A stretch of DNA of 64,000 nt from Clostridia bacterium (GCA_017461065.1 JAFTZC010000013.1:3808-67807); one strand, 5' to 3'; positions 43-57,364 are shown, numbered from the stretch's first letter. Program-made: numbers and translations. The notes: a model not told the origin generated them from the sequence alone.

Positions 43-187
43 AGTCGTTCTCCAAACGGATATTGGCTTTTGCCAATATATTATACACTAAAAGGCGCAT
101 TTTGAAAAGACCCAATTTCGCTATATGCGGCTTTTAGATTTGTGTTTTTGGATAAATCGTGGTAGTATGTATGCAAGGAGTACCAAA

Positions 188-688
188 ATGGACAAGTTTT
201 TGACGGTTTTTGCAGTCTTTGACGACCAAACTCAACGCAAATTGAGCGCTCTCCAAGCCAAAGTTTTTGAGCTCGGTAACCCCGGCACGCAAACGATGGG
301 CATACCCTTTCATCTTACCCTTGGGAGCTTCCCCACAGACAAGGAGTGCGAGTTGGTCAAAAGAATAAAAGAGAGCGCCAAAACCCACGCTCAATTTGAT
401 ATTGGTTTATTAAAAATAAACCACTTTGGCGACAAAGTGGTGTTCGTCGAGCCCGAAGTGAACGAGAGCTTGATGCAGTTACACAATCTGTTCGACTGCA
501 ACTATCCCTACGGCCATCCCTACCACGCCCACGCAACGATATTCCAAGGAGATAGCGAAGCGACAAAGCAAGCTAAAGCTCTTCTTGCTGAAATATTTAC
601 GCCGTTTAGTGCCAAAATCGTAAGCATACAAATGGGAGAGTTCTTCCCAACGAGAATGATTATAAGCGAAAACCTAATTGAAAATTAA
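188..688 (+). CDS. 2H phosphoesterase superfamily protein (LigT / cyclic phosphodiesterase-like)
   Basis: It carries the two H-x-T/S-x motifs of the 2H fold (FHLTLG and HAHATI). I moved the start from ORF-track position 125 to ATG 188 because AAGGAG sits at 174-179. Confidence 0.7.
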   Translation: MDKFLTVFAVFDDQTQRKLSALQAKVFELGNPGTQTMGIPFHLTLGSFPTDKECELVKRIKESAKTHAQFDIGLLKINHFGDKVVFVEPEVNESLMQLHNLFDCNYPYGHPYHAHATIFQGDSEATKQAKALLAEIFTPFSAKIVSIQMGEFFPTRMIISENLIEN

Positions 689-1385: not shown

Positions 1386-4118
1386 TTATGCCTTTCTAAT
1401 AAGAAACCAAGCTGCGTATGCAAGTGCTGATACCGCACCGATATAGAATAAAATCGATTGGTGCGTTGCCTTTTCGGCTTGTTGATTTATTTGGGTTGCC
1501 GTTTGGTTATATGCGTTTATCTCTTGAACGAGAGTTGCGTAGGCTTCACTTGAAGCATCCTTTTCGCTGTCGCTTAGCTCGGCGTATGCTTCAAGAGCTT
1601 CACCTATCGCGTTCCATTTTGCTTCCAAGCCGTTTGCACTTTCAACTGCTTCAACGAGTGCGGCGAATGAAGCTACGACTTCGTCGTTAGCTTGCGCTCT
1701 TTCTTCTGTATGGGAGCAGTCGGCACATACCCTTTGCTCCATATCGTTTTCAATGGGCGTCCACTCGCCAAAAGCGTGTGGGATGGTTGGGACTTCTCTC
1801 GTTTCTACGTCCGAGCAAGCGGGACATACTCTTTGCTCGCTTCCAACCGTCTTGCAAGTTGGCTCGGTTACCACGCTCCACGCCCCGTAGCTGTGTCCAA
1901 GGGAAGGGATACTATCGCCCACTTCGGAGTGGTTGCAGCCCTCTCTTACGCAAGCGTAAGTTCCTTCATAGCCGTCGGCAGTACAAGTGGGAGCAATGTA
2001 GCTGTTCTCCACTGCTTCCAAGTCGTGTCCTAAGCGATTTACTTCTCGAGTGATAGTATTTCCACAAGATGAGCATAGGCTCTCTTCCACGCCGTCGGTA
2101 GTACAAGTAGGCGCCGTGGTTTGGCTCCAAGTGCCGTAGCTATGCTCAAGCGCAGGGATAACTTCGACGTCCACTATCTCGCCACACTCGGTACATTCGG
2201 TGTGTCTGCTACCTGCTCCCGAGCAAGTAGCTTTGCTGTCTACAATCCACTCGCCTGCAGTATGTGCGTGCGTCGAGCCGTATACGATGGTGATTTCTTC
2301 AACGTATACGACGCCCGTCGATTCGTAATTGATAGCAAAATATTGGTCGGTCGTGCCAATATTAAGGGTGCCCCCCGAAGATGACGAAGTCAAAGTGCCT
2401 CGTTTGGTACCCGTACTTACTTTGCCACTACCCGTGCCATAAGCCGTCGAAGACGTATAAACGCTCCAAGGCTTTTCAGCCGTCGATTTGATTGTGATTG
2501 ACACTATACCACCACTAAATGCAGTCGTATTGAATATATATTGAGCAGTTTTGCTACTATTCATTTGAATTGAGCCCGTTTGTCCCGGGTACATAAAGCC
2601 CTGACCACTCATTCCGTCCGCGCTCCAAGTACACCAATTATACGCACCGCTTCCGCTAAAACTCTCACGAGTTATAGTTAACGTTTTGGTGGTGGCTTGC
2701 TTTACGGTAATGCCACTAATCGTCTTTTCGGCGGTGCCGTACTTACAAATAACGGTGGTGCTACCTTGGCTTAAAGCTTCCGCCCTTGACGTGCCGTCAA
2801 GCCAAGAGCAATCTTCGTTTGGGATAGTTGCCGTCGAGCCGTCGGAGTAGGTTGCCGTTACCGTGATACCCGTTGGGTTAAAGGTATCGCCTGCGCTATA
2901 GGTAGTTTTGACGGGTGCTCCCGTAAGCGCAATCGAGCTAACTGCCTTAACCGAAATAGTAGCGGTGGCTTTAACGGAGCTGTTTGCAGTGCTCGTTGCG
3001 GTAATAGTTGCACTACCTGCTCCTACTGCAGTAACTACGCCACCCTCAACGGTTGCAACACTCGTATTAGACGAAGTCCAATTTAGAGTGCTGGTTGCTC
3101 CTGCCTGATAAACTTCGGCTGATAGTCTGTATGTTTCGCCTTTAACAAGGGAAGCAGTAGACGGAGAAATTACTACTTCAGTGGGCTCGATGGTGCTGTC
3201 TCCACCTACGTCACCGTCAAGGTAGCTACCGTAAGTTTCCACTACGTTTTGGAGTTCGTCGCTATAGCTTTCACCGTCGTGACAATAAATCATTTCGGCG
3301 TATTCGGGGTGGTCAATAAAGGGATTTCGGTTACCTTGAACGGCGTAAACGGCTTCGTTCCTTGCTTTTTCAGCTTCCGTTGGAGGCTCTTCGACGTGCC
3401 ACTTCATGAGGTCTTCAATATCGCCTATAGTCTTGTTGTTGCCCTTGCCCAAAACGAAGGTAAGATTATATTTATCTCCCCAACGAGTTTGAACGTACAT
3501 AAGTATACGTGCCGTTGCCCCACGGTAGCCAACGCCGGGATAAAATACTGAGTCTTGTTGGTAACAAAGATTAGCGTAGGAAGTAGAGCCGTTTTCCTTG
3601 ACGATATTAGCCGTAGTTTGCGGTACTTCGCCAAAGCTATTGTTGCTACGGGTGGAGTTCAATTGACTATTGGTTGGACGAAGGTGGTGAGCATCCGAGC
3701 CGGCTTCGCTCTCGGCCGGGAAGGCACTACCTGAGTTCTTTGGCCAAACGTGTTCACGATTGGTGCCAGTGCTAAAGCTACCATTAAAAGAAACGGACGT
3801 GCCGGTATAAAACCAAAGAATATTACCACTCTTGTTGGGGTCGGCGTCACTCTCGTCAAAGATGTTACGAAGCCCATCATAAGTAGGGTTATAATCGTGG
3901 GTAGAAGTTATTAGCGTTGCAAGCTCCGTCCTAAACGAATCACCCGTGAGATTTTCGTTGAGACCTGCGTAATAGCTGTCGTAGGAAGCTGCTTCGACAG
4001 ACTCTACGACTTGCTGAGCGGGAGCAAATACTCCAACCCAACAACCCACCATACTCATCAAGATACATAATGGTAGGATAAGTGCAACGAGATTGAATTT
4101 TCTTTTGGACTTAAACAT
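1386..4118 (-). CDS. cell-anchored multidomain extracellular nuclease with an endonuclease I (EndA/Bsn-family) domain, Ig-like repeats, a beta domain, Cys-rich repeats and a C-terminal TM helix
   Basis: Endonuclease I motifs are present: NREHVWPKNSG, DAHHLRPTNSQLNSTRSNNSFGE and GNRNPFIDHPEYAE. There are Big_2-like segments (GSATITATS..VKATATISVK). About five H-x2-G-x-W..TC..G..C-x2-C modules fall at nt ~1692-2270. The protein has an N-terminal signal and a C-terminal hydrophobic helix (ILFYIGAVSALAYAAWFLI). Confidence 0.85.
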   Translation of the reverse strand: MFKSKRKFNLVALILPLCILMSMVGCWVGVFAPAQQVVESVEAASYDSYYAGLNENLTGDSFRTELATLITSTHDYNPTYDGLRNIFDESDADPNKSGNILWFYTGTSVSFNGSFSTGTNREHVWPKNSGSAFPAESEAGSDAHHLRPTNSQLNSTRSNNSFGEVPQTTANIVKENGSTSYANLCYQQDSVFYPGVGYRGATARILMYVQTRWGDKYNLTFVLGKGNNKTIGDIEDLMKWHVEEPPTEAEKARNEAVYAVQGNRNPFIDHPEYAEMIYCHDGESYSDELQNVVETYGSYLDGDVGGDSTIEPTEVVISPSTASLVKGETYRLSAEVYQAGATSTLNWTSSNTSVATVEGGVVTAVGAGSATITATSTANSSVKATATISVKAVSSIALTGAPVKTTYSAGDTFNPTGITVTATYSDGSTATIPNEDCSWLDGTSRAEALSQGSTTVICKYGTAEKTISGITVKQATTKTLTITRESFSGSGAYNWCTWSADGMSGQGFMYPGQTGSIQMNSSKTAQYIFNTTAFSGGIVSITIKSTAEKPWSVYTSSTAYGTGSGKVSTGTKRGTLTSSSSGGTLNIGTTDQYFAINYESTGVVYVEEITIVYGSTHAHTAGEWIVDSKATCSGAGSRHTECTECGEIVDVEVIPALEHSYGTWSQTTAPTCTTDGVEESLCSSCGNTITREVNRLGHDLEAVENSYIAPTCTADGYEGTYACVREGCNHSEVGDSIPSLGHSYGAWSVVTEPTCKTVGSEQRVCPACSDVETREVPTIPHAFGEWTPIENDMEQRVCADCSHTEERAQANDEVVASFAALVEAVESANGLEAKWNAIGEALEAYAELSDSEKDASSEAYATLVQEINAYNQTATQINQQAEKATHQSILFYIGAVSALAYAAWFLIRKA

Positions 4119-4761: not shown

Positions 4762-5943
4762 ATGATATTCGACATTCAAAAAGCAAGTATTACTAAAAGA
4801 TTGGTTGCGTTTATATTAGACGCCATCCTTTTTGCGGTGCTTGCAGTTGGATTTGCCTGGTTAATCGGTCTTGCTTGCGACTACGACACACATCTTAATG
4901 CAAGCGTATCCACACAAGAAGCCTATACCACCTATTATAAGCGTGCTTACGGCGTAGATTACTCCAAGACATACGAAGAACTCACCGAAAGCGAAAAGGC
5001 AATTTGGGACACGTACTCGGAGCAATTTTCAAACGCCGTCACCTACGACGAAGCAGTCAAAATCACCATTGAACAACTACTATCCTACCGAACTAAATAT
5101 CTTGGCTCACACGGCGTAGACCTACTCGCAACCGACACCACGTACGATAATTATACGACCGAGCAAAAAGCGGCTTGGCTGAGCGCATACGAAGCCTGTC
5201 AAAACGAACTAAAAGCTAAGTACGGCAAAAAGGCCTTCCTAATGAAACCTATCCGCTACGTGCAATCCTATCAAGAAGATTTTAGCGTAGACCTAACTCG
5301 CAACTCGGACGACGTGCCGAAGAGCGAACTCAAAAACTGGCTCAAAGCCTACGACAAGTGCGACAAGGTTTTAGCAACCGACCTATCTTATAACGCAAGG
5401 ATGATGAGAATTCTTGCATTCACTCTTTTAATGATTTCACTCGGCATACTTTTATCTATGCTGATTTTAGAATTTATCGTTCCCCTACTATTCAAAAACG
5501 GCCAAACCGTTGGCAAAAAGGTATTCGGCATCGCCGTTATACATCAAAACGGAGTGCGCGTCAACACAATTACTATGTTTATAAGGACTTTCCTTGGAAA
5601 ATACGCGGTGGAAACTATGGTCCCCGTGCTTTTGGTGTTGATGATGTTTACTTCCAACGCGCTGATATCAGTAATAGTAATTGCCCTATTGTTCATTTTT
5701 GAAATAGTGCTATTCGTATGGAACAAGGACTATCGTCCCTTTATCCACGACGTATTTGCAAAGACGGTAACCGTAGACCTTGCAAGTCAAATGATATTTG
5801 AAAACGAAGCCGAGATGGTTGCGTTTAGACAAAGCACCTACGCCGAAGGCTCGGGAGACGCGCTTTCAGATACACTATACGGCACGTCAAATCCCCTTGC
5901 CAACTCCTTTGTCGAAGTAGACAAAAAGGACGAGAACAAATAA
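4762..5943 (+). CDS. RDD-family-like integral membrane protein with a soluble insert
   Basis: An N-terminal TM helix is followed by a ~180-aa hydrophilic insert and then TM helices with GQTVGKKVFGIAVI, typical of RDD-domain proteins. GGAG lies 6 nt upstream of the ATG. Confidence 0.55.
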   Translation: MIFDIQKASITKRLVAFILDAILFAVLAVGFAWLIGLACDYDTHLNASVSTQEAYTTYYKRAYGVDYSKTYEELTESEKAIWDTYSEQFSNAVTYDEAVKITIEQLLSYRTKYLGSHGVDLLATDTTYDNYTTEQKAAWLSAYEACQNELKAKYGKKAFLMKPIRYVQSYQEDFSVDLTRNSDDVPKSELKNWLKAYDKCDKVLATDLSYNARMMRILAFTLLMISLGILLSMLILEFIVPLLFKNGQTVGKKVFGIAVIHQNGVRVNTITMFIRTFLGKYAVETMVPVLLVLMMFTSNALISVIVIALLFIFEIVLFVWNKDYRPFIHDVFAKTVTVDLASQMIFENEAEMVAFRQSTYAEGSGDALSDTLYGTSNPLANSFVEVDKKDENK

Positions 5944-6018: not shown

Positions 6019-7650
6019 ATGAAAGTTGTACTTGAAAATTTAACAAAAGTATTTCCCAGTAGAAACAAGAAGGCAGGCGAGGAAGTAGTAGCCGTTAACA
6101 ATTTCTCTTTTGAAATTCCGGACGGCAAGCTCATTGGTCTACTTGGACCATCCGGCTGTGGCAAGAGCACTACTCTTTATATGATTAGTGGTCTTCAAAA
6201 GCCGACTTCCGGCAAAATCTACTTCGGCGACGACGACATCACCGCGTTGTCACCCGAAAATAGAGGTGTTGGCCTTGTTTTCCAAAACTACGCACTCTAT
6301 CCTCACATGACCGTTAAGCAAAACATCTTGTTCCCCCTACAAAACCTAAAGGGCGAAGACAAGCTAAGCAAAGACGACATGCTAAAGAAGGCTTACGAAG
6401 CTGCTAAGCTCGTTCAAATCGACGAACTTATGGACCGTAAACCCAGCGAGCTATCAGGTGGCCAACAACAACGTGTTGCTATCGCTCGTGCACTCGTAAA
6501 GATGCCTCGCGTTCTTCTACTTGACGAACCACTTTCCAACTTGGACGCTCGTCTAAGACTTCAAACTCGTGAAGAAATCAGAAGAATCCAAAGAGAAACT
6601 CAAATCACCACTATCTTCGTAACCCACGACCAAGAAGAAGCTATGAGCATCTCCGATATGATCGTCGTTATGAAGCTCGGCGTTATCCAACAAATCGGCG
6701 CACCCCAAGACGTATACGACAGCCCCGAAAACCTATTCGTTGCAAAGTTCCTTGGAACTCCCCCTATCAACGTATTTGACGGCGCTATCCGTGACGGCAA
6801 GGTTTATATCGGCGAAGATGCAGTGCTCGACGCTCCCGGCGTGGAAGACCAAGAAGTTTACGTTGGTATCCGTCCCGAAGGCTTTGAGCTTGCTGAAGAC
6901 GGCGCACTTCACTGCGAACTCCGCAGCGTAGAAGTTATGGGTCGTGACGTAAGTATCGTTTCAGCTAACGCTCAAGCACATACTCCCGTTATCCGCTCTA
7001 TCATCAACGCTGACAACAAGGTAGACGCTACCCAAAAGGAAGTAAGATTCAACCTAAAGGCACACAAGACCTTCGTATTCGCTAAGGAAAGGGTTACCTG
7101 GTCAATGGCAAACGAGGGCAAGACCCTTTACACCTTCAACAAGGCAAGCCAAACCTTGAACGCTAAGTACGACGGCAAGAGCTACGACCTCGGCGTACTA
7201 CTAACCGACGAAGATATTGCTAAGCTCGAAAAGCAAGCAAAGCAAAGCCTATCCCCCGTTGCAAAGTTCTTCATCAAGCAAGGCAAGAAGCTCCTTGGTG
7301 CAGCACAAGCAAAGGTTGCTCCTGCAGTTGAACTCGTCCAAAGCCTTATCCCCGAAAAGCCCGCTCTTACTGGCGAAATCACCTATAAGCTCGCAATGGG
7401 CAAGAATAAGGAAGGACAAACCTTATACTTCGCAGGTGGCGTAGATAACGCTCGCCTATGCGTAACCAGTGATATCCAAAAGGCAGTCGACCTACACGCT
7501 GAGCTCGTAACCAAGGTTGTTGGCGAAGGCAAAAAGGCAAAGACCGTCGTTGAAGGATACAACGTATACTACCTTGACGGCGAAACAAAGGTATACCCCG
7601 AAATCACCGTAGCTAACGGCGAAAATCACGAAAAGAGAATCTTTCTATAA
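6019..7650 (+). CDS. MalK/UgpC-type ABC transporter ATP-binding protein with a ~186-aa C-terminal extension
   Basis: It has Walker A GPSGCGKST, Q-loop VFQNYALYPH, signature LSGGQQQR, Walker B LLLDEP and H-loop VTHD. A MalK-like regulatory domain runs to about residue 357, followed by extra sequence to residue 543. Confidence 0.9.
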   Translation: MKVVLENLTKVFPSRNKKAGEEVVAVNNFSFEIPDGKLIGLLGPSGCGKSTTLYMISGLQKPTSGKIYFGDDDITALSPENRGVGLVFQNYALYPHMTVKQNILFPLQNLKGEDKLSKDDMLKKAYEAAKLVQIDELMDRKPSELSGGQQQRVAIARALVKMPRVLLLDEPLSNLDARLRLQTREEIRRIQRETQITTIFVTHDQEEAMSISDMIVVMKLGVIQQIGAPQDVYDSPENLFVAKFLGTPPINVFDGAIRDGKVYIGEDAVLDAPGVEDQEVYVGIRPEGFELAEDGALHCELRSVEVMGRDVSIVSANAQAHTPVIRSIINADNKVDATQKEVRFNLKAHKTFVFAKERVTWSMANEGKTLYTFNKASQTLNAKYDGKSYDLGVLLTDEDIAKLEKQAKQSLSPVAKFFIKQGKKLLGAAQAKVAPAVELVQSLIPEKPALTGEITYKLAMGKNKEGQTLYFAGGVDNARLCVTSDIQKAVDLHAELVTKVVGEGKKAKTVVEGYNVYYLDGETKVYPEITVANGENHEKRIFL

Positions 7651-7661
7651 GAGGTGAAACT

Positions 7662-8603
7662 ATGGTAGATTCTAAACACAAATGGAAGGCATGGCTGTAT
7701 CTATCCCCGGCACTAATATTGCTTGCGGTATTTACGCTATACCCTATCGTTAACACCATCAGACTTGCATTCATGGAAGACTACGGCATGATGAAGGCGC
7801 TTAGCGGTGCTACCTTTGAGTTTGGTTTTGGCAACTTTGAAAAAGTTGTGGAATATCGCAACTTTACGACCTGCTTGAAGAACACAGTGCTTCTTTGCGT
7901 ACTCACCGTTCCGATTTCGACCGTGCTTGCGCTCCTGATTGCAGTTACTCTTAACTCAATCGGACCACTTAGACGTTTCCTACAAACGATATACTTCTTG
8001 CCCTACGTAACCAACTCGATTGCTATCGGCATGGTATTTGCGGCAATGTTCAATATCGTAGGTAACGTATCTGCAGAACCTCCACTAATCACCACCGCAG
8101 GTATCATCAACAACTTCCTCGGTATCTTCGGAGTAGAGCCCATCAACTGGATCAACGTAGGTTCAAGCTACTGGGCAAACATAACCGTTATGGTTATTTA
8201 TATCGTATGGAACGCGCTCCCCTTTAAGATTCTAATTCTACTTGGCGGACTCCAAAGCATCAACAAGCAATATTACGATGCCGCTAAAGTTGACGGAACT
8301 TCAAGAGCAAGGACGCTATGGAAGATCACCGTTCCACTGCTATCCCCAATGATTGCTTACGTAGTTATCACCAGCTTTATGGGTGGCTTCAAAGAGTACT
8401 CGAGCATCGTAGGTATATTCGGCGAAACTATGGGCCCTCCCGGAAACAAGGGCGCAATGAACACTATGGTTGGCTTTATTTACCAATCACTTGAAGGTCA
8501 ACACCAAGGTAGAGCAAGTGCCGCTTCGCTAATCTTGTTCGCCATCATCATGGCAGTAACCCTTGTAAACCTACAAGTAAGCAAGAAGAAAGTTCATTAT
8601 TAG
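7662..8603 (+). CDS. carbohydrate-type (CUT1) ABC transporter permease, MalF/UgpA-like
   Basis: It has six hydrophobic segments and an EAA-type loop (YYDAAKVDGTSRARTLWKITVPLL). It follows the ATPase gene after an 11-nt gap. Confidence 0.9.
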   Translation: MVDSKHKWKAWLYLSPALILLAVFTLYPIVNTIRLAFMEDYGMMKALSGATFEFGFGNFEKVVEYRNFTTCLKNTVLLCVLTVPISTVLALLIAVTLNSIGPLRRFLQTIYFLPYVTNSIAIGMVFAAMFNIVGNVSAEPPLITTAGIINNFLGIFGVEPINWINVGSSYWANITVMVIYIVWNALPFKILILLGGLQSINKQYYDAAKVDGTSRARTLWKITVPLLSPMIAYVVITSFMGGFKEYSSIVGIFGETMGPPGNKGAMNTMVGFIYQSLEGQHQGRASAASLILFAIIMAVTLVNLQVSKKKVHY

Positions 8604-8613
8604 GAGGTGGATT

Positions 8614-9516
8614 ATGGCAGAAAATAAAAAAGCAACTGTAATAATGCACGAAAGAGATATCGAAAAGACCTCCAAGCTCCAAGTCGTCAACAACGTATTT
8701 GGCACCTTCTTTAGATATCTATTCCTTATAATAGTAGCAGTCGTAGTTTTGTTCCCATTTTATTGGATGATTATCTCATCTCTTAAGACCCTTGCGGAAT
8801 ATAGACTAAGCGTACCAACCTTCTGGCCCAAGCAAGTAGTTTGGTACAACTACGTAGAAGCGTTTACCGCTGCAAACCTCGGCACGCTATTTAAGAACAC
8901 CGTTATCGTCGGCGTAGTATCAACGATACTCTCGCTCGTAATCACGGTACTAACCGCATTCGTATTTGCTCGTCTTGAGTTCAAGGGCAAGAACGCACTG
9001 TTTGCAATGCTCCTTGGTACTATGATGATCCCCGGCGAACTATTCACCATCACCAACTACGAAACGGTATTTAGACTCGGTTGGCTAAACACCTACACCG
9101 TACTTATCGTACCTTTCCTTGTCAGCGTATTCTACGTCTACTTGCTCCGTCAAAGCTTTATGCAAATACCCGACTCACTATATCTTGCAGCAAAAGTTGA
9201 CGGCACCTCAGACCTAAAATACCTATGGAAGGTTATGATCCCACTTGCAATGCCTACCATCATTTCGATAACTATTCTAAAGATGATGGGGGCCTGGAAC
9301 TCGTATATGTGGCCAAATCTCGTTGCAAGAGACGCGGATATGCAACTTATCACCAACGGTCTTAGAAACGCCTTTACCGAAGCAACTTCGGGTGACACCA
9401 ACTTCCCCGTACAAATGGCAGCGGTTGCACTCGTTTCTATCCCACTATTCCTTGTATTCATCTTCTTCAGAAAGTACATCATGAAAGGTGTATCGAGAAG
9501 TGGTATCAAGGGCTAA
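8614..9516 (+). CDS. carbohydrate-type (CUT1) ABC transporter permease, MalG/UgpE-like
   Basis: It has an EAA loop (LYLAAKVDGTSDLKYLWKVMIPLA). AGGAGG at 8602-8607 overlaps the upstream TAG stop. Confidence 0.9.
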   Translation: MAENKKATVIMHERDIEKTSKLQVVNNVFGTFFRYLFLIIVAVVVLFPFYWMIISSLKTLAEYRLSVPTFWPKQVVWYNYVEAFTAANLGTLFKNTVIVGVVSTILSLVITVLTAFVFARLEFKGKNALFAMLLGTMMIPGELFTITNYETVFRLGWLNTYTVLIVPFLVSVFYVYLLRQSFMQIPDSLYLAAKVDGTSDLKYLWKVMIPLAMPTIISITILKMMGAWNSYMWPNLVARDADMQLITNGLRNAFTEATSGDTNFPVQMAAVALVSIPLFLVFIFFRKYIMKGVSRSGIKG

Positions 9517-9608
9517 AATCGGTTTACTCGCCCAGTATGCTTAGCGTAGTGGGCGATACGACTTTATAAAGAACAAAAAAATAAAATACACTATAAGGAG
9601 AAAAAGAC

Positions 9609-11000
9609 ATGAAAAAGAAATTGTTGTGTGTACTTCTTATCGTAGTTATGCTTGCAACCACCGTTAGCTTGATAGCTTGTAACAAAAACAGTGCAGGCGA
9701 AGCAAACTTCGTTGTTCCAGAAGGCGGCTACGACGGAAGCGCAGTAACCCTCAAATTCTACCACACTATGGGTGCAAACCTTCGCGCTGTTCTTGACACT
9801 TATATCGTTGAGTTCAACAAGATTTACCCCAACATCACCATTGAACACGAACAAGTTGGTAGCTACGACGACGTTAGAACCCAAATCAGCACCGAAATCA
9901 ACGTAGGCGCTCAACCTAACATCGCATACTGCTATCCAGACCACGTTGCACTCTATAACGTTGCAGGTGCAGTCGTTCAACTCGATAACCTTATCAACAG
10001 CACCGAAGAAGGTATCGGTCTAAGTGACGCTCAAAAGGCAGACTTCATCCAAGGTTACTACAACGAAGGTAAGCAATTCGGCGACGAATTTATGTACACC
10101 ATGCCTCTAAGTAAGTCAACCGAAGTTCTTTACTACAACAAAACCTTCTTTGACGAGCACAACCTACAACTCCCCAAGACTTGGGCAGAAATGGAAGCAC
10201 TTTGCGCTCAAATCAAGCAAATCGACCCCGATTGTATCCCTCTTGGCTACGACAGTGAAGCTAACTGGTTCATCACTATGTGCGAACAATACGGCTCACC
10301 CTACACCAGCGCAACCGGCGATCACTTCCTATTCGACAACGACACCAACAAGAGCTTCGTAAAGATGTTCCGTGAATGGCACAAGAAGGGTTACGTAACC
10401 ACCCAAGAAATCTACGGCGCATACACCAGCGGTCTATTCATCGAACAAGTTGACACCAACAGCTATATGTCAATCGGTTCATCTGCAGGTGCAACCCACC
10501 AACGTCCCGCTAAAGACGAAACCACCGGCGAATACCCCTTCGAAGTAGGCATCACCACCATCCCCCAAGTTAATGCAAGCAACCCCAAGGTTATCTCCCA
10601 AGGCCCAAGCCTTTGCATCTTCGGTAAGGAAAATCCCCAAGAAGTAGTAGCAAGCTGGCTCTTCGTCAAGTACCTAACCACCACCGTTGCATTCCAAGCT
10701 GAATTCTCAATGGTATCAGGTTATGTTCCTGTAATCAAGTCAGTTGGCGAGCACCCTGCTTATGCAAACTTCATTAACAATGCAGACGGCGGCGCTAATA
10801 TCGCAGCTCTTTCAGCTAAGGTATGTCTCCAACAAGAAGCTGCTTACTACACTAGCCCTGCTTTCAACGGCTCATCAATGGCTCGTGACGAAGTTGGCGC
10901 ACTAATGATTAAGTGCCTAACCGAAAACACCAACGACGTTGACGCTCTCATCAACAGCGCATTTGCTGATGCAGTTGACGAATGTGAATACAACAGCTAA
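9609..11000 (+). CDS. extracellular solute-binding lipoprotein (family 1) of the ABC importer
   Basis: It has a signal peptide with lipobox (SLIACN). Its size and composition are typical of CUT1 binding proteins. AAGGAG RBS is present. Confidence 0.85.
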   Translation: MKKKLLCVLLIVVMLATTVSLIACNKNSAGEANFVVPEGGYDGSAVTLKFYHTMGANLRAVLDTYIVEFNKIYPNITIEHEQVGSYDDVRTQISTEINVGAQPNIAYCYPDHVALYNVAGAVVQLDNLINSTEEGIGLSDAQKADFIQGYYNEGKQFGDEFMYTMPLSKSTEVLYYNKTFFDEHNLQLPKTWAEMEALCAQIKQIDPDCIPLGYDSEANWFITMCEQYGSPYTSATGDHFLFDNDTNKSFVKMFREWHKKGYVTTQEIYGAYTSGLFIEQVDTNSYMSIGSSAGATHQRPAKDETTGEYPFEVGITTIPQVNASNPKVISQGPSLCIFGKENPQEVVASWLFVKYLTTTVAFQAEFSMVSGYVPVIKSVGEHPAYANFINNADGGANIAALSAKVCLQQEAAYYTSPAFNGSSMARDEVGALMIKCLTENTNDVDALINSAFADAVDECEYNS

Positions 11001-11054
11001 TAACCATTATTAGCAAACAAACCAAAAAATCTATTAATATCTATAAGGATTAAT

Positions 11055-12410
11055 ATGGAAAAATTAATTAAAATCCTATCAATACTTATGATCGTCAGCC
11101 TAATGCTCGTCTGTGTCGTTGCTTGCGACGATACGGACGACACCGCTGGCGGTGGCGACGAAAACAACCACGTGCACGTTGACTACGTAGCTGACCTCAA
11201 GCTTGATATGACTTCAACTACTGCTAAGCAAGTAGTTACCGTCAGAAACCACGTTGACGGCGACACCGTACACTTCGACGTCCCCACAGCCGTAATGGCA
11301 AACGGAATATTTAAGGCAAGATTCCTTGCAGTAAACACTCCCGAATCAACGGGCAAAATCGAGAACTACGGCCACACTGCATCACGTTTCACCAAAGAAG
11401 CTCTAAAAGACGCTCACTCCATCATCATTGAGTCCGAAGACGACAAGTGGAACGCCGACTCAACGGGTGGCAGATATCTCGTTTGGATTTGGTACAAAAA
11501 GACTGCCGACGGCGAATATCGCAACCTTAACGTTGAGCTACTCCAAAATGGTCTTGCTATTGCTTCCAATACCGCAAACAACCGTTACGGCACCGTTGCA
11601 ATGAACGCGCTTACCCAAGCTAAAGTAGAAAAGCTATACGTTCACTCAGGCGTAGCCGACCCCGAAGTTTACACCGGTGAAGCAGTAGCTCTTACCATCA
11701 AAGAACTACGCACCAACATCAACGACTACAACGGCATCAAGGTTGCAGTCGAAGGCGTAGTAGTACAAGATTCTTCTCAAACCGTATACGTAGAGTCCTA
11801 CGACGAAGAAACCGACCTTTACTATGGTATAGCCGTTTATTACGGTTACAACCTAAGTGGTACGGGTATGGAGATTTTGTCAATGGGCAACGAAGTTAGA
11901 GTAGTTGGCGTAGTGCAATACTACGAAACGGGTGGCACTTGGCAAATCAGCGACGTTCAATATCGCGATTTCGTACCGGACGACCCCAACAACCTACAAC
12001 TTCTAAGCAGTAACAAAGGTGCAGCTTACACTTTGGTTGATGCAGACACGTTCGTAAACGGCAAAGTAACCGTAGAAACCGAAACCGAAGACAGCATCAT
12101 AAGTACAGAATATGATTTTGCAGAATGTATGCTTTCAGCTTCGATTTCAATGGAAAACCTTGTAATCACCGATATCTACACCACTAACAACGGTGGTAGC
12201 TCCGACGGCGCAATGACCTTTACTTGCAGAGCAAGTGACGGCACCATCGTCGACGTACGTACCATCCCCCTATACGACAGCAACAAGAATCTTCTAACTG
12301 CAGCTGACTTTGAAGGCAAGACCATCAACGTAAAGGGTGTTGTAGATTACTTTAGTGGTGACTACCAAATCAAGGTTTTCAAAGTAAAAGATATTACAAT
12401 CGTTGAGTAA
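11055..12410 (+). CDS. secreted lipoprotein: staphylococcal/micrococcal nuclease (SNase) domain plus two OB-fold-like modules
   Basis: It has a lipobox (VVACD) and SNase motifs (DGDTVHFDV...ARFLAVNTPEST and GRYLVWIW...NLNVELLQNGLA). Downstream beta-rich modules end in ...VRVVGVVQYYETGGTWQI and ...INVKGVVDYFSGDYQIKVF. Confidence 0.85.
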   Translation: MEKLIKILSILMIVSLMLVCVVACDDTDDTAGGGDENNHVHVDYVADLKLDMTSTTAKQVVTVRNHVDGDTVHFDVPTAVMANGIFKARFLAVNTPESTGKIENYGHTASRFTKEALKDAHSIIIESEDDKWNADSTGGRYLVWIWYKKTADGEYRNLNVELLQNGLAIASNTANNRYGTVAMNALTQAKVEKLYVHSGVADPEVYTGEAVALTIKELRTNINDYNGIKVAVEGVVVQDSSQTVYVESYDEETDLYYGIAVYYGYNLSGTGMEILSMGNEVRVVGVVQYYETGGTWQISDVQYRDFVPDDPNNLQLLSSNKGAAYTLVDADTFVNGKVTVETETEDSIISTEYDFAECMLSASISMENLVITDIYTTNNGGSSDGAMTFTCRASDGTIVDVRTIPLYDSNKNLLTAADFEGKTINVKGVVDYFSGDYQIKVFKVKDITIVE

Positions 12411-12483
12411 TCAACTGTAATAAAGTAACCCTATAGTCAAATTAAACAAAAAAACAAAACACATCCTAAGGAGGAATAGTAAC

Positions 12484-15279
12484 ATGAAAAAATTTCGTAA
12501 TTGCGGTCTCTTGATTGTGTTGGCTCTTATTCTCGCTTTGTGCGTATCAGTGTTTGCAGCTTGCACTCCTGATGACGGCGCTGGTGACACCACCGGTCTC
12601 GACTTAGCAAAAGAATATTTGGAAACACAACTAAGAGATGCTGCTACCGTTACCGGTGCTGACTTTACTCGTGCTGCCGTACTAAAGAACGAGCATGGTA
12701 CCTACACCGTAACCTGGACTCTCAGCATCACTTCTGGTCCTTCAACCGGCGTTTCTCTCGGCGAAGTAACCAATGGTATCCAAAAGATCAACGTTGACGA
12801 ATTCTCATCTGAAGAAGTAGTTTACGTTCTTACCGCTACCATCGCTGATGAAAACGGCAACACCCAAACCTTGACCTACAACCACAAGGTTCCTGCCTTC
12901 GTTCTCAACTCCTATGCTGAATACAAAGCAGCTTGCGAAGCAAACGATGGCGAAACCATCATTACCATTAAAGGTTATGTTCTTGGCGTAAATGCTGACC
13001 CAGGCTCAAGCTCAAAAGGTTCACTATGGATCGTGGATGCAGACGGCAACGGCTACTATGCATATAAGCCCACACTTGATGCAGCTATCACCGAAACTAG
13101 AGAAACCATCAACACTGCTTTCCCTCGTGGTAAAGAAGTTGTTATAAAGGGTACCGTTACCACCTATGGTGGCTGCCTTGAGTACAATCAAGGTTGTGAA
13201 GTTATTGCAACCGGTAATTCTGTTGACCCAGCAACTCTACCATACACCGATCAAACCGAGCTGTTCGGAAGCGCTTCTTCTATTTCTGACCATGAAACTC
13301 TTATCTCCACTCAATCAACCCGTGCCGCTCTCAATGGCGTTACCATGGGACAAATTGATGGATACAACTACTACTTCTCAGTAAACGGTGTTGATTTCAT
13401 TTGCTACATGAACATTTATCTACTTAGCGAAGAAGAAAATGCAACTCTTGCTGCAAAGTGGAACCAAGGTGGAAAAGCTAACCTTACTGGCATCATCAAC
13501 GTTTATAGCAACAAGTATCAGCTCTATCCAGATAGCGTTGACTCTATTGAAATTGTAAACGAAAACCTAACTGATGCACAAAAAGTTGAAAGACAAAAGA
13601 ACATCCTTTCACTCGAAGAAACCTACAATGATAACTTCACTCTACCCGAAGGCACTTGGGCAAACGTTGCTTGGACCGTTGAAGGCACCGGCGCAACCAT
13701 CGGCGAAGCTAACGCTGTAACCCTAACCAAGAGCTCCGTTGAACAAACCGTCACCTTCACTGCTACCATCACAAGTGGTACTGAAAGTGACACTGCAACC
13801 TTCACCGTAAAGATTGCTGCTGAAAGAACCTCCTTTGTTAAGGTAGCTCTTAACGCTGGTACAGCTCTTGAAAGTGGCGCAACTACCGAAGATAGCTATA
13901 TTATCGTTGGTATTGTTTCTGAAATCACTTCTGCTTACAGCGCACAATATGGCAACGTATCATTCAACGTAGTAGATGCAGAAGGCAACACCCTACTCGT
14001 TTACCGTTACAACCTTGAAGATGCTGCTACTATCGCAGTAGGCAATGCTATCGCAATCGCAGCACCTATCAAAAAGTACAACACTACTATTGAAGCAGTT
14101 GCTGATTTCGTTAAACTAAATATCACCTCTCTTGCCGACGCAGCTGCTGCAGGTATTGCTGGCACCGGCGTTGCAGATACCGTTGTTTACGGTTACGTAA
14201 AATCTATCGATACCGAATATAGTTCCCAATACAACAATATCACCATCACTATTAGCGATGGCACAAACGACCTCTATTGCTATCGCGTAGCTGGTGGCGA
14301 AGATATCGTTGTTGGCGAATATCTCCTTATCACAGGAACTCCTTCTGCATATAATGGCTCAGCTCAAATGGCAGCTAAGGCAACCTATACCAAAAGCAGC
14401 ATCTATATAGCCCCCTCAACTGGTGAAGGCGAAGATGGTGATGATCAAACAACTGGCGCTGTTAACACTATTACAGACGCTCTTGCTGCCACCGATGGTA
14501 CTGCTGTAGAACTAAGTGGTACTGTTTCCGACATTTATGAGGCATGGAGTTCTTACAATAACATGTCTTTCTACCTTACCGACGGAACCAATCGTATTCT
14601 CGTTTTCCGTACCGGTACTCAAGTAAATATCGGTGACGTTGTTAGTGTTTCCGGTACCGTTACCGTTTATAGCAACACTAATCAAATAGCACAAGGCTCA
14701 ACTGTTACCATTACTACCGCTCACGTTTGCTCAACCTATACCGATGCCGACTGTGAAAATGCAGCTGAATGTACTATATGCGGTACCGTTCAAGCAGGCA
14801 GTACCGCTCTTGGACATATTGATGAAGACACCAATGGCGCTTGTGATAGATGTTCTGTAAGCATGGCATCCGAAACAGCTACCGCAACTTATACTGCAGG
14901 CACCACCACCAACATGGTTGATGGAAACAATGCTGCAACCATCGGTCTTGATGCAACCATCTTCACAGTTACCTCTACAAAAACCAACGGGGGTAACAAC
15001 CATGTCGGTCTTAATAAAAACGGTACCATACGTCTATATAAGGGTCACACGTGTGAATTGAGCATCTCTATCGCTGCTGATTATACAATCGCAAGCATTA
15101 AGGTTACCCTTGCAAGTAGCGATGCCGGCACTCTCGTTGTTACTGACGGAACAAGTGAAATCACAGCTGATGCTAGTGTATATACCATAAATGGAAGCAC
15201 CGTTGTTCTTTATAACACCAATACAAGCGGACAATCTCACATTACTTCTATTGAAATCGTTTATGCTCCTGTTGCATAA
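12484..15279 (+). CDS. large lipoprotein with about 5-6 OB-fold-like repeats, one Cys-rich module and a C-terminal beta domain shared with the endonuclease I protein
   Basis: It has a lipobox (VFAACT). Repeats of the type G-[YIT]-V-x-x-[IV]...YxN[VIM][ST]FxxxDxxGxxxLxx[YF]R occur, e.g. GIVSEITSAYSAQYGNVSFNVVDAEGNTLLVYRY, GYVKSIDTEYSSQYNNITITISDGTNDLYCYRV and GTVSDIYEAWSSYNNMSFYLTDGTNRILVFRT. The Cys module is at 14722-14859. The assignment as an OB fold or DNA binder is an inference from the repeat pattern and the neighbouring genes. Confidence 0.6.
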   Translation: MKKFRNCGLLIVLALILALCVSVFAACTPDDGAGDTTGLDLAKEYLETQLRDAATVTGADFTRAAVLKNEHGTYTVTWTLSITSGPSTGVSLGEVTNGIQKINVDEFSSEEVVYVLTATIADENGNTQTLTYNHKVPAFVLNSYAEYKAACEANDGETIITIKGYVLGVNADPGSSSKGSLWIVDADGNGYYAYKPTLDAAITETRETINTAFPRGKEVVIKGTVTTYGGCLEYNQGCEVIATGNSVDPATLPYTDQTELFGSASSISDHETLISTQSTRAALNGVTMGQIDGYNYYFSVNGVDFICYMNIYLLSEEENATLAAKWNQGGKANLTGIINVYSNKYQLYPDSVDSIEIVNENLTDAQKVERQKNILSLEETYNDNFTLPEGTWANVAWTVEGTGATIGEANAVTLTKSSVEQTVTFTATITSGTESDTATFTVKIAAERTSFVKVALNAGTALESGATTEDSYIIVGIVSEITSAYSAQYGNVSFNVVDAEGNTLLVYRYNLEDAATIAVGNAIAIAAPIKKYNTTIEAVADFVKLNITSLADAAAAGIAGTGVADTVVYGYVKSIDTEYSSQYNNITITISDGTNDLYCYRVAGGEDIVVGEYLLITGTPSAYNGSAQMAAKATYTKSSIYIAPSTGEGEDGDDQTTGAVNTITDALAATDGTAVELSGTVSDIYEAWSSYNNMSFYLTDGTNRILVFRTGTQVNIGDVVSVSGTVTVYSNTNQIAQGSTVTITTAHVCSTYTDADCENAAECTICGTVQAGSTALGHIDEDTNGACDRCSVSMASETATATYTAGTTTNMVDGNNAATIGLDATIFTVTSTKTNGGNNHVGLNKNGTIRLYKGHTCELSISIAADYTIASIKVTLASSDAGTLVVTDGTSEITADASVYTINGSTVVLYNTNTSGQSHITSIEIVYAPVA

Positions 15280-15310
15280 TCCACACAACAAAATCTTTTT
15301 ATAAAGATAG

Positions 15311-15335
15311 AAAGGCACTCTTCGGAGTGCCTTTT
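15311..15335 (+). terminator. rho-independent terminator of the ABC/nuclease operon
   Basis: AAAGGCACTC-TTCG-GAGTGCCTTT is followed by a T-run, 32 nt after the stop of the 931-aa gene. Confidence 0.75.
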
Positions 15336-15473
15336 GATTTGGAAATATTAAAGTGCCTAACGGACGGAATTAAGATTGCTTTGAAATCGCAATTATGCAC
15401 TCTATAGGTGCGCAATTATGTCCTAACGGACACAAACTTCGTTGCGCTTACGCTACACGAACAAGGAAATTGG

Positions 15474-15801: not shown

Positions 15802-16521
15802 TTAAACGTCCTTACGTATAATCTCGTAAGCCTTATAGTCTGTTCTTGTGTGGGTTAGGGGAGTGATGGTTACGTAGCCGTCTATGGTTGCATCGCTATC
15901 GATGGTTAAGTCGTGGCGGTTTTGGTGTATGCAGTAGCCCGTTTGCTTCCAAATATCCTTTTCGATTTCAACGAAGCTGTCGGTATAATACGCTCCGCCT
16001 TGCTTGGTTACTACTATGCCCTTGGGATTGTCGGGGATATTTACGTTTAGTAGGTCGGCGTGCTTGAGCATATCGTGCGCTACTATATATTCGTACGCTT
16101 TGCCTATCCACTCGCGCGCAGAGTCAAACGAGTTTATCTCGGCAGAGAATGCTACGCCCTTTATATCGCGATATCTTGCTTCAAATATGGCGCCTGCAGT
16201 ACCCGAGTAGGATATGTCTTCGCCCATATTTAGCCCCCTATTTACGCCCGAGAACACTACGTCGTAGTCGCGCATTAGTCCAAGAGTACCAAACCTTACG
16301 CAGTCGGCAGGAGTGCTGTCCACGGCATATGCTTCCTTGGCGCCCAAGTACTCCACCTTTTTGACTTCAAATGGAGTGTATATGTTGATTGCGTGGGCCT
16401 TGGCGCTTTGTTGCACCTTGGGGGCACATACCGTAACTTCGCCAATGGTGCTTGCAAAATCAACGAGCACCCTTATGCCTTCGGCGTTTATTCCGTCGTC
16501 GTTAGTTACAAGTATTCTCAT
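15802..16521 (-). CDS. surE: 5'/3'-nucleotidase SurE
   Basis: The N-terminus MRILVTNDDGINAEGI matches the SurE signature. The length of ~240 aa fits. There is a 4-nt ATGA overlap with the upstream gene. Confidence 0.9.
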   Translation of the reverse strand: MRILVTNDDGINAEGIRVLVDFASTIGEVTVCAPKVQQSAKAHAINIYTPFEVKKVEYLGAKEAYAVDSTPADCVRFGTLGLMRDYDVVFSGVNRGLNMGEDISYSGTAGAIFEARYRDIKGVAFSAEINSFDSAREWIGKAYEYIVAHDMLKHADLLNVNIPDNPKGIVVTKQGGAYYTDSFVEIEKDIWKQTGYCIHQNRHDLTIDSDATIDGYVTITPLTHTRTDYKAYEIIRKDV

Positions 16522-57363: not shown

Positions 57364-57364
57364 T

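Follow-up and report, generated by a model that had tools for sequence, protein, structure and literature searches.

A conserved gene cluster of gut Clostridia linking a UgpB/U3G-branch CUT1 importer with a surface SNase and an OB-fold lipoprotein, probably for nucleic-acid scavenging

Operons that unite an SNase and a binding lipoprotein with a 'sugar-type' ABC transporter are known from Mycoplasma, where precursors of nucleic acids have been hypothesised to be imported (PMC3585158, PMC9740415). Examples comprise M. agalactiae MAG_5030-5070, M. hyopneumoniae mhp379, M. pneumoniae Mpn133, M. hominis MHO_0730 and M. bovis MbovNase (PMC3585158, PMC9740415), and co-transcription has been reported for the M. 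agalactiae operon (PMC3585158). A second precedent for the cluster analysed here is the DNA-degradation cluster of an Izemoplasma, Xianfuyuplasma coldseepsis zrk13, in which a thermonuclease and a DNase/RNase endonuclease accompany phosphohydrolases and ABC transporters, and for which DNA degradation was demonstrated experimentally (PMC8397711). The third is the Thermus thermophilus structure 7C0F, which shows that a dinucleotide can be bound by a CUT1 binding protein. In the FEBS J 2021 paper on this structure, U3G reportedly was a co-purified ligand. 7C0F is listed as a U3G-binding protein (PMC12718374 SI Table S5), and the title of its paper (Chandravanshi et al., FEBS J 2021), as cited in PMC12718374, mentions a moonlighting function; co-purification and title together make U3G no more than a possible physiological ligand. 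An earlier note on this DNA had regarded nucleic-acid-derived ligands as an unusual substrate class for CUT1 transporters. This overstates the novelty, because the same hypothesis had been published for the Mycoplasma operons (PMC3585158, PMC9740415) and a dinucleotide-binding CUT1 structure, 7C0F (PMC12718374), came before.

The locus lies in a window of 64,000 nucleotides from the metagenome-assembled genome (MAG) of an uncultured gut Clostridia bacterium. Six ORFs on the + strand encode an ABC ATPase (6019-7650), permease A (7662-8603), permease B (8614-9516), the binding lipoprotein (9609-11000), an SNase lipoprotein (11055-12410) and an OB-array lipoprotein (12484-15279), separated by gaps of 11, 10, 92, 54 and 73 nt, respectively. 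Co-directional order, coordinates and gaps of 10-92 nt match the earlier description, and Pfam and NCBIfam agree with the identities it assigned to all six genes. The six genes stand, but conservation of the cluster extends one gene further upstream, to an RDD-family membrane protein (4762..5943, + strand, 393 aa, four predicted TM segments; Pfam RDD E = 8e-15), which is its conserved first gene.

By published description, the Mycoplasma operons share with this cluster a surface SNase lipoprotein, a sugar-type solute-binding lipoprotein (modelled), an ATPase and two permeases. They differ in order, which in Mycoplasma runs binding protein, SNase, ATPase, permease, permease, and here RDD protein, ATPase, permease, permease, binding protein, SNase, OB protein. 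The OB-array lipoprotein, the RDD gene and the NrnA/SurE neighbours are present here and unreported for the Mycoplasma operons in PMC3585158 and PMC9740415. Unlike Mycoplasma, the hosts are walled, uncultured gut Clostridia. Compared by description only, an OB-array lipoprotein and a U3G-type binding protein are likewise not described for the Izemoplasma cluster in the excerpts of its report (PMC8397711).

The last gene is followed on the + strand by an intrinsic terminator (15310..15343), composed of an 11-bp GC-rich stem and UUUUGAUUU. The hairpin itself (15310-15335; -21.9 kcal/mol, z = -5.8) has UUUUGAUUU directly 3' of it, and since its stem is palindromic it can act in both directions. 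This terminator, confirmed here, had been taken as the only strong one; a second stable hairpin, lacking a U-tract, occupies the 92-nt gap between permease B and binding protein (9528..9556, + strand; MFE -23.5 kcal/mol, z = -3.6), and the same junction is structured (z < -2) in 22 of 68 related loci. It may serve in attenuation, transcript processing or mRNA stability. It could also split the transcript, which counts against the scavenging reading given below.

The ATPase (543 aa, MalK/UgpC type) matches ABC_tran, CysA_C_terminal and OB_MalK; among NCBIfam families UgpC scores highest, with 344 bits against a cut-off of 432 that is thus not reached. Its core comprises residues 1-357 and is extended by an extra C-terminal tail of ~185 aa (DNA about 7090-7647), while orthologues in most loci measure 361-372 aa. 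The tail domain is found again in surface lipoproteins of related clusters. Permease A is MalF/UgpA-like (BPD_transp_1 E = 9e-20; best NCBIfam matches MalF and UgpA), and permease B is UgpE/MalG-like (BPD_transp_1 E = 3e-13; best NCBIfam match UgpE, 3.8e-31).

The binding protein, the SNase protein and the OB-array protein all have signal peptides, each with a lipobox Cys (SLIAC, VVAC, FAAC) that is invariant or nearly so in the family alignments. The SNase lipoprotein (451 aa; PF00565 at residues 88-193) consists of an SNase domain (~45-200) and two OB-like β-barrels (~205-305 and ~312-451). Its AF2 model (pLDDT 88.5) displays the b1-b2-b3-alpha-b4-b5 topology, and Foldseek matches the protein to staphylococcal nuclease with a TM of 0.80-0.85, normalised by target length. 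Of the catalytic residues, the family alignment shows no change at D70, R89, T95, E97 and R140 and next to none at N94; the SNase calcium ligand D40 is Asn throughout the family, which counts against the nuclease reading. In B. subtilis, YhcR resembles this protein as a surface-bound, sugar-nonspecific nuclease combining SNase with OB folds, and YokF and YncB resemble it as surface-bound, sugar-nonspecific SNase lipoproteins. YhcR has a 5'-nucleotidase domain of its own and is sortase-anchored, whereas both are missing here (Pfam, TM scan). We know of no link of the YhcR, YokF or YncB genes to an ABC importer.

The OB-array lipoprotein (931 aa) was modelled with confidence (AF2 pLDDT 87.9). 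From the N-terminus, the model contains an Ig domain (55-137), OB1 (140-250), OB2 (255-360), an Ig/aBig_2 domain (362-446), OB3 (448-545), OB4 (547-640), OB5 (658-748) and, after a Cys-rich linker, a β-sandwich (799-931). About five to six OB-like repeats had been proposed from the sequence; the prediction resolves them into five OB folds with two Ig-like domains and the C-terminal β-sandwich, and so speaks for OB folds over carbohydrate-binding modules. OB4 scores above the cut-off for the tRNA_anti-codon OB fold (PF01336; 32.3 versus 27 bits). In hhalign comparisons, OB3, OB4 and OB5 match one another at 99%, OB1 matches them at 96-97% and OB2 at 58-81%, and the second barrel of the SNase protein matches the array's OB folds at 84-89%. 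Foldseek aligns the model with the OB-type DNA/RNA binders 4jbm_B, 6y6e and 1k8g at a probability of 0.99-1.0; a GH43 arabinanase and Ig/cadherin arrays are also among the top E-values, with TM only 0.1-0.15. OB arrays could bind other polyanions, which counts against nucleic-acid capture.

Close relatives occur in at least 596 species-level genomes. Synteny was counted in the 80 best loci from species-level genomes, with the loci testable for each gene as denominators. The SNase gene lies directly 3' of the binding-protein gene in 76/76 loci, with a gap of <15 nt in most, and is followed by an OB/Ig/repeat protein in 63/63. The ATPase and both permeases precede the binding protein in 63/65, and the RDD gene is directly upstream of the ATPase in all 60 loci with enough flank. 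The linkage of binding protein and nuclease, whose conservation the earlier note had proposed to check, extends to distant clades, where it is found in 63 of 69 loci with binding proteins ~35% identical to that of the window. In some relatives, P0387 and L160, binding protein and OB repeats form a single fused chain. Such an arrangement lies well outside what chance would give; the same order recurs in every testable locus among the 80 species-level genomes. Flanking genes recur less often: an NrnA-like pair in 34/80 loci and SurE in 28/80. In the window, SurE, a cytoplasmic 5'/3'-nucleotidase without a signal peptide, is encoded at 15802..16521 (- strand; TIGR00087, 161.6 bits versus a cut-off of 135.1), next to two tandem cytoplasmic NrnA-like proteins with DHH and DHHA1 domains (16518-17498 and 17500-18447, - strand). 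The latter also lack signal peptides and match NrnA best in NCBIfam, at 225-228 bits, below the cut-off of 350.

The binding lipoprotein (463 aa; SBP_bac_8/SBP_bac_1), part of an importer previously called 'sugar-type', falls by profile scores and site residues within the phosphoester-binding UgpB/U3G branch of CUT1 and not within a sugar branch. Its closest solved structure is 7C0F (single-sequence search, 1e-19), and the family profile scores 6e-39 against 7C0F and 4e-36 against UgpB, with sugar binders no better than 6e-24; identity is low, the window protein sharing only 25% of residues with 7C0F and 23% with UgpB. The phosphate ligands of UgpB, Y42, S121, S247 and Y323 (PMC12718374), correspond to Y86, S170, S291 and Y372, which 56-63 of the 69 family representatives retain, and the Tyr/Ser/Ser-or-Thr/Tyr tetrad is shared with 7C0F. 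UgpB G284 and R374 are conserved as G332 and R426. In contrast, the Trp clamp of UgpB (W169/W172) is replaced by A218/F221, as in 7C0F (A176/F179), and family-wide these positions hold A/S/D and F, with both Trp missing; UgpB E66 is not conserved either, being Pro in the window protein (P110, where 7C0F has Glu). Three of the 7C0F positions mutated by its depositors align with Y272, S291 and H297; the family consensus there is Y, S and Y and shares with 7C0F the two tyrosines among the mutated residues. The Tyr at 7C0F chain position 248 is His297 in the window protein, and the alignment of 7C0F Y226 is ambiguous, pairing with L276 in one pairwise alignment and with Y272 in others. At sequence level, the comparison with characterised CUT1 binding proteins that had been suggested earlier thus yields a pocket resembling that of 7C0F and not of UgpB, the phosphate residues being kept and the Trp clamp gone.

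Could the importer nevertheless be a Ugp-like transporter for glycerophosphodiesters or glycerol-3-phosphate, placed beside the nuclease and OB proteins through shared phosphorus acquisition only? It falls within the same CUT1 sub-branch as E. coli UgpBAEC, whose components are the nearest named NCBIfam families: UgpB is the best match for 25/26 binding-protein family members, and UgpC, UgpA and UgpE are best or near-best for the ATPase and permeases. The conserved tetrad, G332 and R426 fit this proposal, as does a family-profile score for UgpB nearly as high as for 7C0F. We nonetheless consider it unlikely, as all scores fall far below the curated UgpB cut-off (63 versus 411 bits for the binding protein), the glycerol-clamping Trp pair is missing family-wide, and the SNase adjacency, the OB fusions and the NrnA-like neighbours would remain unexplained; nuclease and OB partners are a feature of this cluster, not of Ugp.

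Import of unphosphorylated nucleosides, deoxyribose or ribose after full extracellular digestion appears distinctly improbable, even though most characterised CUT1 members import sugars and Pdp and nucleoside-salvage genes are nearby. The phosphate tetrad, reported absent from glucose binders (PMC12718374), is kept, and the binding protein scores far higher against phosphoester than against sugar binders. Domain and signal-peptide/TM scans identified no secreted phosphatase or 5'-nucleotidase encoded in the cluster, and SurE and the NrnA-like proteins, recurrent neighbours, are cytoplasmic, which fits phosphorylated cargo. Given a UgpB/U3G-branch binding protein and a cluster without extracellular phosphatase, nucleoside 3'-phosphates, dinucleotides and short oligonucleotides are far better candidate substrates than nucleosides or their sugars ribose and deoxyribose; from the range of candidates first proposed, short oligonucleotides are thereby favoured and the unphosphorylated ones disfavoured. 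A non-nutritional role of the nuclease and OB proteins beside an unrelated transporter (DNA-biofilm remodelling, DNA-trap escape or foreign-DNA access control, roles that surface SNase-type nucleases hold in staphylococci and mycoplasmas) is very improbable in view of the invariant gene order in testable loci, the very short or absent gap between binding protein and SNase, the binding-protein-OB-repeat fusions and the co-occurring cytoplasmic oligonucleotide and nucleotide hydrolases.

The observed gene order, domain identities, conserved catalytic and ligand-site residues, synteny and fusions, with the predicted folds of the SNase and OB proteins, lead us to postulate that the locus probably serves nucleic-acid scavenging: capture and cleavage at the surface, import of phosphorylated mono-, di- and short oligonucleotides, and internal breakdown. 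A functional link between nuclease, OB-fold lipoprotein and CUT1 importer, the core of the earlier proposal, is supported by the gene linkage, the OB folds and the fusions. Extracellular DNA or RNA would be retained on the membrane surface by the 931-aa lipoprotein together with the nuclease's own OB domains, and the SNase domain would cut the polymer, assisted in this lineage by an Endonuclease I protein. Staphylococcal nuclease yields nucleoside 3'-phosphates and 3'-phosphorylated di- and oligonucleotides, and from this established chemistry the same products would be expected here. The binding lipoprotein would bind phosphorylated fragments through its phosphate tetrad and aromatic residues and pass them on to the permease pair and its MalK-type ATPase. 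Inside the cell, the NrnA-like enzymes may cleave short oligonucleotides, SurE may strip 3' or 5' phosphates, and Pdp and other salvage enzymes may use the nucleosides.

The neighbours listed in the earlier note (2H phosphoesterase, Endonuclease I protein, SurE, two NrnA-like proteins, NUDIX protein and Pdp-like start) were all confirmed. The surface Endonuclease I protein (1386..4118, - strand) combines Endonuclease_1, Big_2 and Big_3 domains and has a signal peptide at its N-terminus and a TM anchor at its C-terminus (Pfam, TM scan). As a neighbour it is lineage-specific, found with the same neighbours in one other locus (L052); in another (L001) the OB protein itself carries a fused Endonuclease_1 domain. 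The 2H (LigT-like) phosphoesterase (125..688, + strand; PF13563 E = 3e-10) reaches 29 bits against TIGR02258 (RNA 2',3'-cyclic phosphodiesterase), below the cut-off; elsewhere it adjoins the cluster only in L052, and we assign it to the cluster tentatively. The Pdp-like N-terminus, MRMYDIIKKKRDGG, is encoded at 42..1 on the - strand, and a NUDIX protein is also among the neighbours.

The transporter and nuclease genes form six open reading frames on the + strand, located at 6019-7650 (ABC ATPase), 7662-8603 and 8614-9516 (two permeases), 9609-11000 (binding lipoprotein), 11055-12410 (SNase lipoprotein, 451 amino acids), and 12484-15279 (OB-fold lipoprotein, 931 amino acids), and separated by gaps of 11, 10, 92, 54, and 73 nt, respectively. 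This layout agrees with the earlier note, as does the terminator following the last gene, which comprises a GC-rich stem of 11 bp and then UUUUGAUUU (z = -5.8). Two elements had been overlooked: the 92-nt gap 5' of the binding-protein gene holds a stable hairpin without a U-tract, and the gene of an RDD-family membrane protein (4762-5943) is part of the conserved unit. The RDD protein consists of 393 amino acids in the window, compared to ~253 elsewhere. An Rfam search of the whole window returned no riboswitch and no other RNA family, and a promoter scan gave a result not above that of shuffled sequence. All three secreted proteins carry a lipobox cysteine after the signal peptide, and this cysteine is (nearly) invariant within each family. 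NCBI annotates them as extracellular solute-binding protein, thermonuclease family protein, and hypothetical protein, respectively.

The organization of this unit is highly conserved. One genome per species was scanned with a closer-set alignment of the binding protein (A4) as query, the diverse family alignment (A3) being too divergent for this purpose. At least 596 species-level genomes encode a close relative of the binding protein. The best 80 of these (64-74% identity) are without exception uncultured MAGs from gut or rumen and belong mostly to Clostridia (Oscillospiraceae, Faecousia, Christensenellaceae), with seven labelled Spirochaetota. Gene order in the best 80 loci was read from ORF calls, followed by searches with the window proteins and domain HMMs. 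The SNase gene lies immediately 3' of the binding-protein gene in all 76 testable loci, with a gap of <15 nt in most loci, and is itself followed by the gene of an OB/Ig/repeat protein (63/63 testable loci). The ATPase and both permeases are encoded upstream in 63 of the 65 testable loci, and the RDD gene occupies first place in 60 of 60. The nearest match in gene context is L052, a locus in a Candidatus Stercoripulliclostridium MAG. In a second scan, with queries ~35% identical to the window protein, 63 of 69 loci still had an SNase gene at a distance of at most 6 kb. Some of the distant loci depart from the window layout by having two binding proteins in tandem, by placing the OB protein between the binding protein and SNase, or by encoding long ATPases. 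Two fusions (protein entry P0387, 904 aa; an uninterrupted ORF at locus L160, 823 aa) join a binding protein to Ig and OB repeats like those of the 931-aa lipoprotein, and in one relative the OB protein carries an Endonuclease_1 domain too.

The Spirochaetota-labelled loci (L026, L037, L038, L056, L065, L075, and L079; Sphaerochaetaceae, Bullifex, Ornithospirochaeta) encode binding proteins 66-70% identical to the Clostridia protein, within a cluster that is complete where the contig extends far enough. These copies point to either inter-phylum horizontal transfer or binning errors.

The transporter has the components of a CUT1 importer (TC 3.A.1.1). By Pfam and NCBIfam, the two BPD_transp_1 permeases are of UgpA/UgpE (MalF/MalG) type, and the binding protein is of SBP_bac_1/SBP_bac_8 type. 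The ATPase is of MalK/UgpC type with a C-terminal regulatory β-domain, matching ABC_tran, with CysA_C_terminal and OB_MalK matches at residues 246-290; its top NCBIfam matches are UgpC, GlcV, and MalK. It comprises 543 amino acids in the window, compared to 361-372 in most orthologues, the difference being a C-terminal tail (residues ~358-543, window 7090-7647) with no Pfam match and no TM segment. An OB fold was considered for this tail and rejected, with an hhalign probability of 24% at best. The tail is homologous to a ~90-aa domain present three times in lipoproteins encoded directly after the SNase gene in other species, for example at L021:12777-14585 (E = 3.6e-18), with further related loci at L005:12867-15683 and L073:4245-6041. 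An HMM of the repeat matches the protein downstream in 36 of the 80 genome loci. Because this domain is found both on a surface lipoprotein and on the cytoplasmic ATPase of one type of transporter, we speculate that it is a ligand-binding module working on both sides of the membrane. Distant clusters with two tandem binding-protein genes were seen at L085, L086, L088, L090-L092, L094, L104, L150, and L158; several of them encode ATPases of 443-651 amino acids with extensions unlike the tail in the window.

The binding protein offers the most direct view of the cargo. Searched as a single sequence against the PDB, it matched the 7C0F series from Thermus thermophilus best (E = 1e-19), followed by UgpB (1e-11). 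The A3 family profile of 26 diverse members reached 7C0F at 6e-39, E. coli UgpB at 4e-36, and the first sugar binders at 6e-24 or weaker, and the closer-set A4 profile returned nothing from the PDB at 1e-30 or better. The 7C0F protein binds uridylyl-3'-5'-phosphoguanosine (U3G; PMC12718374, main text and SI Table S5). In UgpB, the phosphate is bound by two Tyr and two Ser residues, which are shared with the glycerophosphocholine and U3G binders but are not conserved in glucose binders (PMC12718374). In an alignment of 69 family representatives that also included E. coli UgpB and 7C0F, this tetrad falls at Y86, S170, S291, and Y372 of the window protein and is kept in 56-63 of the 69 representatives; UgpB G284 and R374 are also retained, as G332 and R426. 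Together, the retained phosphate ligands and the nearest-structure matches identify the protein, as judged from its sequence, as a putative phosphoester binder of the UgpB/U3G branch of CUT1.

Within this branch, orthology to UgpB itself is rejected: the NCBIfam UgpB model gives the binding protein 63 bits, where the cut-off is 411, and the best family member (E = 1.3e-27) is also under the cut-off. The Trp169/Trp172 clamp, the defining feature of glycerol-3-phosphate binding in UgpB, is missing as well: the corresponding positions are A218/F221 in the window and A/S/D and F across the family. At these positions 7C0F carries A176/F179, as the window protein does. Comparison of the deposited 7C0F variants revealed three positions mutated by the depositors (chain Y226, T242, Y248), which align with window Y272, S291, and H297 (family consensus Y, S, Y) at ~25% identity, a mapping with which the A3 profile alignment agrees and one pairwise alignment disagrees for Y226. 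The signature Y-P-S-[ASD]-F-Y-S-[YHN]-G-Y-R holds across the family down to ~33% identity. The pocket residues thereby appear closer to the dinucleotide binder 7C0F than to UgpB. A Ugp-like glycerophosphodiester importer, with the nuclease a mere neighbour, would be in keeping with the shared phosphate ligands and the second place of UgpB among the PDB matches; next to the replaced clamp and the constant adjacency of the SNase gene, we regard it as unlikely. Two relatives of the binding protein, P0361 and P0379, are odd fusions, with for example an FtsK fragment or BspA-type leucine-rich repeats attached, and could be either genuine mosaics of surface proteins or artefacts of gene calling.

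The nuclease lipoprotein was expected to combine an SNase domain with two OB folds, an architecture that stands in the predicted structure. Its SNase domain scores 37.8 bits against PF00565 (cut-off 21) and aligns with staphylococcal nuclease at 33% identity. We considered the catalytic residues Arg35, Glu43, and Arg87 and the calcium ligands Asp21, Asp40, and Thr41. Window residues D70, R89, T95, E97, and R140 correspond to SNase D21, R35, T41, E43, and R87 and are invariant in a 41-member alignment; the sole deviation is the calcium ligand D40, which is Asn in nearly all of the 41 members (N94 in the window). The AlphaFold model (pLDDT 88.5) superimposes on SNase with Foldseek TM scores of 0.80-0.85, normalised to target length, and adds two β-barrels of OB topology (b1-b2-b3-helix-b4-b5). 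These C-terminal barrels were judged by topology and hhalign, because the Foldseek list was filled with staphylococcal nuclease entries. The second barrel matches OB1, OB2, and OB5 of the 931-aa protein at 84-89%, and the first is only weakly related (43%).

The 931-aa lipoprotein was modelled at a pLDDT of 87.9 as a chain of Ig, OB1, OB2, Ig (aBig_2), OB3, OB4, OB5, a Cys-rich linker, and a C-terminal β-sandwich. Pfam detects a tRNA_anti-codon OB fold and an aBig_2 domain, PF01336 matching OB4 at 32.3 bits (cut-off 27). An OB fold was taken to be a five-stranded β-barrel with a helix between strands 3 and 4, together with sequence or profile likeness to known OB families, and DSSP finds this topology in five domains with pLDDT above 90. 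In hhalign comparisons of sliced sub-alignments, OB3, OB4, and OB5 are linked to each other at 99%, with OB1 joined to this group at 96-97% and OB2, more weakly, at 58-81%. Foldseek returned p202 HIN, Unr cold-shock domains, and telomere end-binding protein at probabilities of 0.99-1.0, so that the OB domains are predicted to be of nucleic-acid-binding type by fold. The five modelled folds bear out the five to six OB-like repeats that had been proposed. BLASTP detected no internal repeats when the 931-aa and SNase proteins were each compared with themselves, and a sequence search of the 931-aa protein against the PDB gave no useful match; the repeats become visible solely in the predicted structures and by comparing profiles with profiles. 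Structure prediction also addressed the possibility, raised in advance as contrary to a nuclease operon, that the repeats are carbohydrate-binding modules. This was not found, and the identification was rejected, as the GH43 and Ig-array Foldseek matches lie at TM 0.1-0.15 and reflect generic multi-β-domain chains.

The surroundings of the cluster are also as the earlier note described them, with a 2H phosphoesterase, an Endonuclease I protein (signal peptide and TM anchor), SurE, two NrnA-like DHH/DHHA1 proteins, a NUDIX enzyme, and a Pdp-like N-terminus at the window edge. SurE scores above the TIGR00087 cut-off. Among the best 80 loci, the NrnA-like pair occurs in the flanks of 34 and SurE in those of 28. 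By its established enzymology, staphylococcal nuclease releases 3'-phosphorylated mononucleotides and dinucleotides. We postulate that the polymer would be held at the cell surface by the OB arrays and cut by the SNase, that the binding protein would take up the phosphorylated fragments for import through the CUT1 translocator, and that the NrnA-like paralogues, SurE, and Pdp would finish the breakdown in the cytoplasm. This sequence of capture, cleavage, import of phosphorylated fragments, and internal breakdown is our preferred reading, and we consider it likely. A phosphorylated cargo is favoured because the cluster encodes no secreted phosphatase, and neither the nucleotidase SurE nor the NrnA-like proteins carry a signal peptide.

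To our knowledge, known nucleoside importers require full dephosphorylation outside the cell. An importer for nucleosides or sugars would suit the CUT1 family, most characterised members of which carry sugars; set beside the phosphate tetrad and the missing secreted phosphatase, it is very unlikely. A nuclease with a non-nutritional role next to an unrelated transporter is highly improbable in a locus of such constant gene order. The preferred reading can be carried further, to a large unstudied family of di- and oligonucleotide ABC importers in gut anaerobes. In such a family, short 3'-phosphorylated oligonucleotides would be imported intact and finished by specialised NrnA-like paralogues, and the ~90-aa domain would be a new (oligo)nucleotide-binding module, capturing outside and trans-inhibiting the transporter from inside. 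We offer this extension tentatively and regard it as possible, though doubtful.

The proposal of a CUT1 importer coupled to surface nucleases is therefore supported, with its substrate narrowed to phosphorylated fragments by the tetrad and the lack of a secreted phosphatase, and with its novelty reduced. B. subtilis YhcR is a single protein, anchored by sortase, that contains OB folds together with SNase and 5'-nucleotidase. In contrast, no secreted protein of the cluster contains a 5'-nucleotidase/metallophosphatase domain, and anchoring is by lipobox rather than by an LPXTG motif. In M. agalactiae, a 'sugar' ABC transporter is co-transcribed with the binding-protein-like lipoprotein P80 and the SNase lipoprotein MAG_5040, an arrangement conserved in many Mycoplasma species (mhp379, Mpn133, MHO_0730, MbovNase) and hypothesized to import nucleotide precursors (PMC3585158, PMC9740415). 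Compared with the description in PMC3585158, the window cluster shares the co-directional SNase lipoprotein, binding-protein-like lipoprotein, ATPase, and two sugar-type permeases, but differs in gene order. The NCBIfam model lipo_P68 matches 13 of the 26 binding-protein family members (best E 1.8e-15); in the literature, P68 could be matched only to M. hyopneumoniae mhp390, a protein distinct from the nuclease-adjacent lipoprotein. A thermonuclease and ABC transporters also occur in a DNA-degradation cluster described for Izemoplasma (PMC8397711), and a dinucleotide as the ligand of a CUT1 binding protein has its precedent in 7C0F (PMC12718374). Because of these Mycoplasma, Izemoplasma, and 7C0F precedents, neither the idea nor a nucleotide ligand in this transporter family is new. 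The new elements are the wide occurrence and rigid order of the locus among uncultured gut Clostridia, its OB-array lipoprotein and RDD gene, the joining of binding protein and OB repeats in single proteins, the repeated presence of NrnA/SurE partners, and a residue-level link, drawn from alignments, that would connect these binding proteins to the U3G binder.

Bacterial import of the digestion products of extracellular DNA and RNA is poorly defined, and we know of no demonstration of the substrate of the long-discussed Mycoplasma nuclease-ABC operons. The locus provides a compact, extremely conserved version of such a system in animal-gut bacteria. As its binding protein points to a structurally characterised dinucleotide binder, the substrate question becomes a direct binding experiment. 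If the preferred reading is true, oligonucleotide import would become an established CUT1 substrate class, many 'sugar ABC transporter' and 'extracellular solute-binding protein' annotations would need revision, and nucleic acids would be a nutrient niche of abundant uncultured gut Clostridia.

Further features were observed elsewhere in the window. A 206-aa lipoprotein without family match is encoded on the - strand at 754-1374, between the 2H phosphoesterase and Endonuclease I genes, and occupies the same place in L052. About 8 kb downstream of the cluster, 23365-25035 encodes a Na+/Pi cotransporter fused to PhoU domains, a possible phosphate-handling link. At 38716-44961, where AT skew is high, four genes follow one another with stop and start codons that abut or overlap; they encode a 314-aa protein with an RF-1/PCRF domain, an 803-aa UvrD-like helicase with weak GajB-like PADLOC matches, a 237-aa coiled-coil-like protein, and a 725-aa protein without family match. 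At 56281-58459, where GC content is low (34-37%), one gene for a GmrSD_N plus HNH endonuclease and another for an EcoRI-type adenine methyltransferase probably constitute a mobile restriction-modification island.
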